Source: a virus
Lineage: Duplodnaviria > Heunggongvirae > Uroviricota > Caudoviricetes
Length of the DNA: 4,821 nucleotides
Reading direction: 5' to 3' (one strand)
IMG/VR virus record: IMGVR_UViG_2706794669_000008
Position 1 is the first letter of the stretch. Each line of letters opens with the position of its first letter. The notes under the pieces are model-generated. The model did not search any database. It was not told the origin of the DNA and worked only from the letters and a program-made list of their open reading frames with translations. The position numbers were made by a program, and so were the translations under genes. Of the stretch, positions 2,682 through 4,821 are shown piece after piece.

Positions 2682-3065
2682 ATGCGTGATATTCAGATGG
2701 TTCTTGAGCGTTGGGGAGCGTGGGCGGCTAATAATCATGAAGATGTGACCTGGTCGTCCATTGCCGCCGGTTTTAAGGGATTAATTACTTCAAAAGTAAA
2801 ATCTCGCCCGCAATGTTGTGACGATGACGCGATGATTATTTGCGGGTGCATGGCCCGTCTGAAAAAGAACAACAGCGATTTGCACGATTTATTAGTAGAT
2901 TATTATGTAGTCGGTATGACATTCATGTCACTGGCAGGTAAGCATTGCTGCTCTGATGGTTATATCGGGAAAAGGTTACAGAAGGCTGAGGGCATAATTG
3001 AAGGGATGTTAATGGCATTAGATATCCGGTTAGAGATGGATATCGTTGTTAATAACTCTAATTAA
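2682..3065 (+). CDS. quuD: late-gene antitermination protein Q (QuuD-like), 127 aa
   Basis: ATG at 2682 with GGAG at 2671..2674. Sequence [22 protein letters not shown]...[18 protein letters not shown]... matches my recollection of DLP12 QuuD, including the Cys-rich motif. The track start at 2667 is a TTG extension. TAA stop at 3063..3065. Confidence 0.85.
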
Positions 3066-3080
3066 TATGCCAATTGTTTA

Positions 3081-3117
3081 CTAAAAATTATTAAAAATGG
3101 GGCGTTGCAACGCCCCC
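3081..3117 (-). terminator. intrinsic terminator for leftward transcripts (nmpC and IpeX)
   Basis: Perfect 18-nt GC-rich palindrome GGGGCGTTGCAACGCCCC at 3099..3116. On the minus strand it is followed by ATTTTTAATAATTTTT (complement of 3081..3098). On the plus strand it is followed by A-rich sequence, so it is unidirectional. Confidence 0.55.
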
Positions 3118-3257
3118 AAAAATAAAGGGTAATATATAACAGAAGGTTTATATAGTTAGAAGCAAGGTTGTGCTCCTAAAGGAAGTGGCTTGAGGGAGCC
3201 ACTTATATGTTGGGGAGGCAAAGCCTCCCGCAACATATCTTTTAGTAATCAAATTAG
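3090..3257 (-). ncRNA. ipeX: candidate IpeX-like sRNA region (3' end / downstream of nmpC)
   Basis: From memory, IpeX is a roughly 167-nt sRNA overlapping the 3' end and downstream region of nmpC in DLP12, on the same strand. Here the distance from the nmpC stop (3254) to the minus-strand terminator U-tract (about 3090) is about 165 nt and the region is highly structured. Ends are not mapped. Confidence 0.4.
3183..3243 (+). terminator. candidate terminator for rightward transcripts (tR'-like), tandem hairpins plus CTTTT
   Basis: Hairpin A: AAGTGGCT / AGCCACTT (3183..3204, loop TGAGGG). Hairpin B: ATATGTTGGGGAGGC-AAA-GCCTCCCGCAACATAT (3205..3238, one bulged G), followed by CTTTT at 3239..3243. 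Sits between Q and the convergent porin gene. Confidence 0.35.
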
Positions 3258-4336
3258 AACTGGTAAACCATACCTACAGCAACGATATCATCGGTAGCAA
3301 CGCCAGATGCTTTCGTGAAATCGCTCTTATCAATCAGGTTGATTTTGTAATCAACAAAAGTGGACATATTTTTGTTGAAGTAATAGGTTGCACCTACATC
3401 AATATATTCAACCAGGTCCTGATCACCCCACGCACCCAAGTCTTTTCCTTTAGATTGCAGGTAAGCAACGGACGGACGCAGACCGAAGTCGAACTGATAT
3501 TGTGCAACTACTTCGAAGTTTTGTGCTTTGTTGGCAATATGGTTATTACCAAAAACAGTCATGTTCTGGGTTTCAGAATAGGTGGTAGCCAGATAGATGT
3601 TGTTCGCATCATATTTCAGACCAGCTGCCCATACTTCAGCATTTTGACCAGATGCATTCAGGCTGTTGTTACCGTAGATAACCTGATTATTAGTGCGGTC
3701 AGATTTAGCATAGGTTGCACCTACACCGAATCCTTCATACTCATAAGTAGTGGAGAAACCGAAACCATCACCATTAGCTTCAGTTACGTCAGTGCGGTCA
3801 TTTTTACCCTGATACTGAGCAGCAAAGTTCAGACCATCAACCAGACCAAAGAAGTCGTTGTTACGATAAGTTGCAACACCAGTGGTGCGACCAGTCATGA
3901 ACACATCTGTTTGAGTCCAAGTGTCACCACCGAATTCTGGCAGGACGTCAGTCCACGCACCGATGTCGTATGCTACACCGTAGTTACGGCCGTAATCGAT
4001 GGAGCCGTAGTCACCGAATTTCAGGCCAGCGAAGGCAAGACGGGTTTTATCTTTGGAGGAACCTTGAGATTCAGCGCGGTTGCCTTTGAATTCATATTCC
4101 CACTGACCGAAACCAGTCAGTTGATCGTTGATTTGGGTTTCACCTTTGAAGCCAAGACGGGCATAAGTAGTATCACCATCATCTGCATCATTAGAGGAGA
4201 AGTAGTGCTTAGCATTAACTTTCCCGTACAGATCCAGCTTGTTACTGTCTTTATTATAAATTTCAGCTGCCTGAGCAGACATCGCCATCAGTACTGATGC
4301 AGCTACAGCAGAAATTGCCACTGTTAATTTTTTCAT
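3254..4336 (-). CDS. nmpC: outer-membrane general porin, NmpC/OmpD family, apparently intact (360 aa precursor)
   Basis: Start chosen at the ATG at 4336 ([23 protein letters not shown] signal peptide, then [16 protein letters not shown]...). The track start at 4396 adds 20 implausible residues. C-terminal ...VAVGMVYQF ends in the Phe typical of porins. Strong similarity along the whole length to my recollection of OmpC, NmpC and OmpD. TAA stop at 3254..3256. Confidence 0.92.
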
Positions 4337-4726
4337 CGTGAGCCCTTTTTTTGAACTATTATTAAAAAATGATGTCATTGCGCGATAAATATTCATCTAA
4401 TCAATGTGATTATTTCAAGATGTAAGTTTTGGTTTCTCGTTTGATTTGTGAAGTAGATCTCTATTTTTATCTGAACTTTTTTCTATCGAATCCTATTCAT
4501 GGCTCTTGACTGAATAAAAATAAATCTATTAGCCAATTTATATTAACGGCTGTTATTTATAAGTGCTCTATAATTTGAAGGTTCAATTTAAACCGGCTAA
4601 AAATAACACTGGAAATTATTTGTTGGTTATTTGTTGGGATTTGCTTATGTATTTGTAGTGGTGTTTTCAATACTCGGTAGCATTCTCGCAAATATCATTT
4701 AGTGGTTTACGTACGTAAAAAATTGG
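4337..4726 (-). promoter_or_regulatory. AT-rich upstream regulatory region of nmpC; promoter not mapped
   Basis: About 390 bp of AT-rich non-coding DNA between the porin start and the IS1 end, the size expected for a porin control region. Contains a perfect tandem repeat (4616..4637) and a 14-bp palindrome (4706..4719). No confident -35/-10 pair identified by eye. Confidence 0.4.
4616..4637. repeat. perfect tandem direct repeat, 2 x 11 bp (TTATTTGTTGG)
   Basis: 4616..4626 and 4627..4637 are identical and adjacent. Confidence 0.8.
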
Positions 4727-4821
4727 GGTAATGACTCCAACTTATTGATAGTGTTTTATGTTCAGATAATGCCCGATGACTTTGTCATGCAGCTCCACCG
4801 ATTTTGAGAACGACAGCGACT
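4727..4821 (-). mobile_element. IS1 terminal fragment (IRR end; element body lies right of the window)
   Basis: GGTAATGACTCCAACTTATTGAT... from 4727 to the window end is the reverse complement of the last roughly 95 nt of IS1 (3' end of insB plus IRR) as I recall it. Same orientation as the left copy. Confidence 0.9.

Follow-up and report, generated by a model that had tools for sequence, protein, structure and literature searches.

An IS1 insertion likely splits the late lysis-gene promoter of a DLP12-like prophage and leaves the promoter of the neighbouring nmpC-type porin gene intact

Gene content and prophage context

The window, by which we mean the whole 4,821-nt stretch of DNA that was analysed, comes from a DLP12-like lambdoid prophage, of which it holds the Q-nmpC part. 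Its + strand carries a ybcN/NinB-like gene, ninE, ybcO, rusA, ylcG and the gene for the Q antiterminator, and its main landmarks are as follows.

1 to 83, − strand: IRL end of another IS1, oriented like the right-hand copy (reverse complement of IS1 IRL)
2682 to 3065, + strand: Q antiterminator of the QuuD type, Q21/Q933W family (PF06530, E = 3.5e-53)
3254 to 4336, − strand: intact porin gene of the nmpC/OmpD/Lc type, 360 aa (Pfam Porin_1, E = 3e-153)
4727 to 4821, − strand (the porin strand): IRR-proximal 95 bp of a full-length IS1, comprising the 3′ end of insB′ (reverse complement of the canonical IS1 right end)

The exact porin protein is very common in public assemblies, and the Q protein of the window is 78% identical to Q of VT2-Sakai, with a distant match to the Q21 structures 6P18 and 6JNX. 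In gene order and Q type the window agrees with DLP12 (qsr′) of E. coli K-12, which is arranged quuD-nmpC-essD/rrrD/rzpD. In K-12, however, it is the 3′ end of nmpC that carries an insertion, an IS5, and the spacer up to essD is intact, whereas the window has an intact porin gene and an IS1 in the spacer; the left boundary differs as well, the window having a remnant of gene P together with IS1. In the mutant phage 434B (OL657227), a laboratory derivative of phage 434, the late region has been replaced, according to the record annotation, by the ylcG-to-essD block of K-12 DLP12, Q-nmpC::IS5-essD, acquired by recombination; the spacer of this phage matches K-12 at 100% identity.

A look-up of contigs that encode exactly the porin of the window led to CP049179.1 (locus L132), a 4.88-Mb chromosome whose reverse complement is 100% identical to all unmasked parts of the window. 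Two runs of N, of 233 and 195 letters, mask positions 264–496 and 2238–2432 of the window, the second covering most of rusA. Their lengths are not those of the DNA that they hide, as the corresponding spans of CP049179.1 measure 252 and 240 bases. A 125-aa open reading frame (595–972, − strand) that had no Pfam match is flanked by the P remnant and ybcN, and a 125-residue gene is called at the equivalent place in other prophages (CP049179.1 and loci L135 and L136). Two GC-rich hairpins (3099–3116 and 3205–3230) separate Q from the 3′ end of the porin gene, where GGGGCGTTGCAACGCCCC reads as a minus-strand terminator and GGGAGGCAAAGCCTCCC lies directly past the porin stop codon; these hairpins probably insulate the porin gene from transcription arriving from the Q side. 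An Rfam search of the window returned no match at E ≤ 1.

The right-hand IS1 is a simple insertion

An earlier note on this DNA had placed an IS1 about 390 bp upstream of the porin gene, with insAB reading towards it. Both points were borne out: the porin ATG is at 4336 on the − strand and the IS-free stretch from 4337 to 4726 measures exactly 390 bp, while the equivalent IS1 end in E. coli MS20675 bears an IS1 transposase annotation on the strand of the porin gene, the strand on which the complete IS1 of CP049179.1 also encodes InsA and InsB′. Both terminal inverted repeats of IS1 are present in the window (IRL, GGTGATGCTGCCAACTTACTGAT; IRR, GGTAATGACTCCAACTTATTGAT), with IRR at 4727–4749 and the reverse-complemented IRL of the left copy at 61–83. 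The IRR end, reading GGTAATGACTCC..., begins at 4727, and seven bases (4720–4726) separate it from a 14-bp palindrome that is discussed below. One further feature marks the junction.

4719 to 4726, no strand: left copy of the 8-bp IS1 target-site duplication AAAATTGG, duplicated in CP049179.1 and single in IS1-free genomes

In CP049179.1, where both ends could be located, the IS1 is a complete 768-bp element with the InsA reading frame and the InsB′ frame open on the porin strand, arranged as ...AAAATTGG / IS1 / AAAATTGGTTATGCT. Beyond it, the −10 element, start region, hairpin and the genes essD-rrrD-Rz are all intact. From the 8-bp duplication and the intact, collinear essD side, we concluded that the right-hand IS1 arrived by simple insertion and does not mark the edge of a rearrangement.

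Comparison with IS1-free nmpC upstream regions, which the earlier note had proposed as a way of locating the insertion point, placed it at intergenic position 390/391, within ...AAAAATTGG/TTATGC.... In IS1-free genomes, the porin gene and essD, which encodes the holin, diverge from a 572-bp intergenic region; the insertion point is thus 390 bp upstream of the one and 182 bp upstream of the other. The retained 390-bp stretch was found in 2420 of 5426 complete E. coli genomes and is 98.7% identical to K-12. The exact right junction was absent from these 5426 genomes (CP049179.1 is not one of them) and from the genome-contig, metagenome-contig and plasmid collections searched. MS20675 alone in the 5426-genome set has an IS1 nearby, an independent insertion 19 bp away.

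In MS20675 (L004, 6080–6110) the IS1 sits 19 bp deeper into the same promoter region in the same orientation, and its far side is rearranged, with an ISAs1 pseudogene and PAAR/WD40-type genes in place of essD. The window lineage and MS20675 together provide two IS1 insertions within 19 bp at an AT-rich spot. A supposed third IS1 in the spacer, in MB22 (H163), was rejected, the element being located in the Q gene, and a terminator-like site at 4723–4740 was dismissed as a coincidental joining of the flanking TTGG to the IS1 IRR.

The left-hand IS1 breaks off the prophage close to the 3′ end of the replication gene P, and its flank matches regions annotated as replication protein P in IS1-free genomes. 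In CP049179.1 (reverse complement 1–2765), a further IS of approximately 2.1 kb has in turn entered this copy 231 bp from IRL; it carries a 390-aa gene matching the rve and Mu-transposase C-terminal domains. Such nested and multiple elements indicate that the host genome carries many insertion sequences. Directly oriented IS1 ends bound the window, and Tn9-like elements share this layout of two directly oriented IS1 copies, so that the 4.6-kb Q-porin segment could be read as an IS1 composite transposon moving the porin gene. We rejected this reading as extremely improbable: the two copies share no single target duplication, the right-hand one having an 8-bp duplication of its own with collinear prophage sequence past it, the left-hand one is disrupted by another IS, and neither junction was found at any other site in the E. 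coli genomes or the contig, metagenome and plasmid collections. The right-hand IS1 is instead an ordinary IS insertion that happens to expose a useful promoter element.

The porin promoter region is retained

The earlier note had suggested that the IS1 might displace regulatory sites of the porin gene. [quoted passage not shown] We set this interval against the intergenic features of the window, including a tandem repeat to which the earlier note had drawn attention.

4337 to 4546, − strand: nmpC-type porin promoter region, −1 to −210 from the ATG, intact, approximately 99% identical to K-12
4616 to 4637, no strand: tandem duplication of 2 × TTATTTGTTGG, copies 100% identical

The PnmpC regulatory region, with its Crp, OmpR, IHF and MprA sites (the K-12 paper also names RyhB), is kept in the window in a form nearly identical to that of K-12. 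It is unaltered by the IS1, and both the tandem repeat (−280 to −301 from the ATG) and the palindrome (−370 to −383) fall outside it. A consensus promoter scan gave no σ70 site at its threshold, and for this reason a relaxed scan and homology were used instead; the relaxed scan gave CRP-like sites at 4405–4420 and 4447–4462 and to TTGAAA-19-AATATT at 4418–4388 as the best σ70 candidate. The displacement of porin regulatory sites is thus not supported, the defined PnmpC being wholly retained, and with the roughly 210-bp promoter untouched, no change in porin expression is predicted. As far as the sequence goes, we found no supporting evidence for an effect of the IS1 on the porin gene.

The tandem repeat was verified at 4616–4637 as two identical 11-bp units. 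Perfect tandems of two 11- to 15-bp units arose in 0 of 2000 shuffles, from which we take the repeat to be a real duplication. Among the 42 IS1-free intergenic sequences compared, however, the repeat scored 18–21 of 22, most commonly 21, the forms with 18–20 having their changes mostly in unit 1; it is perfect in the window lineage alone owing to a private G at 4637, and the 20-bp bins around it are among the more variable of the spacer. An OmpR or IHF reading was dropped, as we saw no convincing match by eye and no conservation. A role as a regulator site, as the earlier note had allowed for, therefore found no support in a feature whose perfect form is private to one lineage, which lies in a variable zone and which bears no sign of selection. 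On this comparison, the repeat appears to be a decaying ancestral 11-bp duplication with no evidence of function.

Taken together, these results make it very unlikely that the IS1 alters porin expression by insAB read-through or displaced sites and that the repeat and the palindrome are porin regulator sites. The orientation of the IS1 is as that proposal needs, the upstream region is AT-rich enough that silencing effects are conceivable, and the repeat is not a chance match. Yet the promoter, regulator sites included, extends no further than −210 from the ATG and is kept whole, the repeat is imperfect and variable in other genomes, and the palindrome, as shown below, belongs to a divergent promoter. 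Read-through from insAB would need to cross 390 bp, and the IS1 promoter is weak and autorepressed. On the porin side, moreover, the outward box in IRR, read from the sequence, offers only TTGGAG-17-TACGTA, with a poor −10 and no usable hybrid promoter. Distal effects on the porin gene through H-NS, supercoiling or IS1 read-through may still occur.

The palindrome lies in a predicted late promoter split by IS1

The perfect 14-bp palindrome 7 bp from the IS1 end was present as the earlier note had described it. It was detected computationally as a perfect 7+7 palindrome; it did not figure in the repeat finder's list and was read directly from the sequence. Dinucleotide shuffling produced perfect palindromes of at least 14 bp at a rate of 7.8% for the 390 bp and of 28% for the whole window, so this one is by itself unremarkable. 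It is also not the target context of the IS1, which had been one suggestion, as the 8-bp duplication overlaps it by only one base. It does align with the late promoter pR′ of Stx phages.

4706 to 4719, + strand: dyad TTTACGTACGTAAA, corresponding in the Stx-phage pR′ alignment to the −35 hexamer of pR′ (4706–4711) and the first 8 bp of the spacer; candidate Q-binding element

The palindrome opens an 82-bp block (intergenic positions 369–451) with homology to pR′ of the Stx phages. When phage genomes were searched sensitively with the spacer of K-12, 277 records fell in the 60–80% identity band, and the matches of that band among the 40 rows sampled all cover only the spacer from about 369 to 451, that is, from the palindrome onwards. 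The matching Stx-phage segment lies after gene Q and bears annotations for the late promoter, qut and a terminator. In the alignment, TTTACG-N16-TATCAT of the Stx phages faces TTTACG-N16-TATGCT of the DLP12 type, and both continue with TAAGAGTGGTTAC..., followed by a hairpin and a T-tract. By dRNA-seq and Term-seq, the Stx pR′ start was mapped 258 nt upstream of the 3′ end of tR′ (PMC7547250). We applied this distance, which is independent of sequence version, rather than the published absolute coordinate of the start, and in the VT2-Sakai record it puts the start 4–7 nt past TATCAT.

The correspondence extends to the surrounding cassette. The Stx phages 933W, VT2-Sakai and phi24B, like the phage 21 cassette, have a Q of the same family (PF06530), and the Stx-phage pR′ shares TTTACG, the 16-bp spacer, the start region TAAGAG, the hairpin with T-tract and the downstream holin, endolysin and spanin genes. 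The window departs from the Stx phages in having a reversed porin gene between Q and pR′, TATGCT in place of TATCAT as the −10, TA rather than AT at the centre of the dyad, and an IS1 that splits the promoter. Whereas the Stx-phage start is experimentally mapped, the DLP12-type promoter is matched by homology, with only its −35 half in the window. The holin, endolysin and spanin genes (essD, rrrD and Rz) lie downstream in IS1-free genomes and beyond the IS1 in CP049179.1, as does the hairpin with T-tract, which is conserved in all promoter classes and falls outside the window. The −10-like elements AAGAGT and TAC.T. (a candidate pause element) were seen by eye only, likewise beyond the IS1.

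By this homology, we assign the palindrome to a DLP12-type pR′ that would drive essD and read away from the porin gene, with the Q of the window as the cognate regulator of the split promoter. The Stx alignment, the mapped Stx start and the related Q together place the IS1 inside the pR′ spacer, one base before the −10, so that the insertion, judged from sequence homology, is in the late (lysis-gene) promoter of a DLP12-like prophage and not in a porin control region. The suggestion that the palindrome could be a regulator site was reasonable, but the element is one of the divergent late promoter and not of the porin gene. The earlier note had linked its proposal to whether all porin regulation lies within the retained 390 bp and whether the repeat and the palindrome are conserved: porin regulation does lie there and the repeat is not conserved, while the palindrome is.

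A strong hairpin with T-tract lies approximately 26–48 nt past the pR′ start in all eight promoter classes described below (for example K-12 L002 5425–5460 and locus L005 1262–1284). The Stx transcript is reported as 258 nt long and ending at a second terminator, despite this early hairpin.

Predicted consequences for the lysis genes

We propose that a 768-bp IS1 together with the 8-bp AAAATTGG duplication entered the spacer of a Q-dependent pR′. The −35 hexamer with the dyad TTTACGTACGTAAA would have stayed next to the porin gene, and everything further along, namely the −10 (TATGCT), start site, promoter-proximal hairpin/terminator and lysis genes, would have been moved away from it by 776 bp. 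This would destroy the native pR′. On the porin side, the −35/dyad now faces TAATGA of the IS1 end, from which we predict that pR′ is dead on that side. On the essD side, an outward −35 in the IS1 IRL, TTGGCA, lies exactly 17 bp from TATGCT in CP049179.1, and may rebuild a promoter. Outward −35 elements of IS1 and the hybrid promoters that they form are documented in PMC8764528, which cites Prentki 1986. Known IS1 hybrid promoters (Prentki et al. 1986; afaA in ST131) likewise pair an outward −35 in the inverted repeat with a resident −10, and the 17 bp seen here fall within the 16–18 bp expected of an IS-created promoter; here, by contrast, the −35 of an existing promoter is replaced and no silent gene is activated, and the promoter is a predicted one that lies outside the window. 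The rebuilt promoter would be without the dyad, the probable recognition element of the QuuD/Q933W-type antiterminator, and Q-dependent read-through into the lysis genes would consequently be lost or crippled. The 8-bp duplication retains on the essD side the spacer bases nearest the −10, and some Q contact might survive through these.

Overall, we consider it likely that a simple IS1 insertion splits pR′ and uncouples the lysis genes, that the porin promoter is spared, and that the 2 × 11-bp repeat is a feature with no evidence of function. Such an insertion would be one more example of IS-mediated prophage decay or domestication: cutting the lysis cassette from its Q-dependent promoter while sparing the porin would keep a useful gene and disarm lethal ones.

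Relation to the published essDp promoter

An RpoE- and Q-dependent lysis promoter of DLP12, essDp, was reportedly described by Rueggeberg in 2015 and is said to be the only published DLP12 lysis promoter. Its position could be derived indirectly from the reporter primers, the reverse one of which has two typographical deletions relative to the genome. The reporter, given as −121 to +650, maps to K-12 L002 4928–5698 (771 bp, starting at the equivalent of window position 4264), which puts +1 at window position 4385.

4353 to 4379, + strand: σE-like GAACT-N17-TCATT, the position suggested by the reporter primers and a motif scan for the RpoE-dependent essDp (start at approximately 4385)

This motif ends 6 nt upstream of the implied start and is the only loose σE match in the region. 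The essDp start therefore appears to lie approximately 340 bp from the pR′ homologue and the IS1, and not at the dyad; if essDp is real, the IS1 is within its 524-nt leader. On this basis, the relevant lysis promoter could be essDp, with the dyad merely part of a long 5′ leader and the IS1 acting by polarity or termination. The reporter endpoints and the σE-like motif just upstream of 4385 speak for this reading, which we nonetheless regard as distinctly unlikely: dyad-N16-TATGCT is homologous to a pR′ whose annotation fits the Stx-phage dRNA-seq, and the dyad block is the most conserved part of the intergenic region. The two promoters are, moreover, not mutually exclusive, and with either one essD is uncoupled by the IS1 from its native promoter or promoters.

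A genomic SELEX study gives an RpoS-holoenzyme peak at position 576032 of K-12, in the insH/nmpC-essD spacer, and the passages of its RpoE list that were covered hold no DLP12 spacer entry (PMC5493296). We take that position to lie near the porin start rather than near the dyad.

A position-fixed dyad varies with Q clade

The dyad was invariant in all 43 DLP12-type spacers collected and lies within the most conserved part of the spacer; in the Stx phages it reads TTTACGATCGTAAA, with the central TA changed to AT and the palindrome still perfect. Anchoring on nothing but the conserved transcribed segment, we assembled 120 viral loci, in which eight dyads occupy one fixed position: TTTACGTACGTAAA, TTTACGATCGTAAA, TTTACAATCGTAAA, TGTTATAACA, GCGTACGC, GCGGTCCGC, TGGAATTCCA and TTCGTTACGAA, each followed by an A/T-tract and a −10. 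Of 46 distinct sequences, 41 had the dyad centre 23–23.5 bp away from this anchor, as against 1.1% of shuffles, the exceptions being one-mismatch variants. Across 100 loci with 55 distinct Q sequences, every Q cluster carried a single dyad family and none was mixed; each dyad family mapped to its own Q clade or clades, with Q between 5 bp and 2.9 kb from the promoter. Inside a class, the dyad is fixed while the bases from the A-tract to the −10 vary. This exclusive pairing of dyad classes with Q clades suggests that the palindrome is probably a Q-type-specific recognition element, that is, a candidate Q-binding element (QBE). Physical linkage could account for part of the association.

Such a site would be unlike the one known for the family. 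In phage 21, the solved QBE consists of two directly repeated 8-bp subsites, ATTGAGCA and AATGAGCA, in the −35/−10 spacer, an arrangement that we did not find here; the window and the seven other promoter classes have instead a dyad-symmetric element over the −35 and early spacer. A palindromic site would hence be a different architecture within the family, and our literature search found no paper defining a QBE for the 933W-type Q group.

It is conceivable that the dyad is the operator of some other dimeric protein, or a −35/UP structural feature linked to Q, and that the QBE lies near the −10. The Q21 precedent, in which the direct repeat fills the spacer and the two protomers have different roles, fits tandem better than symmetric sites, and co-inheritance is to be expected of neighbours such as Q and pR′. 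We find this explanation somewhat unlikely, however, as it is the dyad that stays fixed within a Q clade and the A-tract to −10 bases that are free to vary, and as the association persists where Q is 0.6–2.9 kb from the promoter. The downstream transcribed segment, furthermore, is common to all classes, so recombination does split neighbouring pieces, and no regulator besides Q is known at pR′.

In its fullest form, the proposal is that the palindrome is the QBE of the QuuD/Q933W branch, that at least eight specificity classes co-vary with Q, that loading is non-tandem and that the IS1 lineage is a natural QBE swap; we put this forward tentatively, as plausible but not quite probable. If it is true, this group of antiterminators, to which the regulators of Shiga-toxin expression belong, would read a dyad-symmetric site that overlaps the −35. 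Their loading geometry would be symmetric, or would differ in some other way from the tandem Qu/Qd one of the Q21 structure, which would be a testable departure from that structural model. In the IS1 lineage, the Q-responsive −35/dyad would have been replaced by the constitutive −35 of IS1. The dyad sequence would then also be a simple way to tell which Q and pR′ of Stx phages are compatible, with a bearing on toxin expression. The comparative result, that a dyad of fixed position in the late promoters of the Q933W/DLP12 group differs from one Q clade to the next, is of wider interest than the insertion, and a dyad-type Q recognition element, as we infer it from these alignments, would be the sole part of this analysis to reach beyond the locus.

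A recombinant promoter was seen at one IMG/VR locus (L099), in which a dyad with a TA centre, TTTTACGTACGTAAAA, is joined to a 933W-type spacer and −10, AATCTGCATATCATGA. The Q of this locus, 826 bp upstream, is intermediate, scoring 232 bits against the Q of the window.
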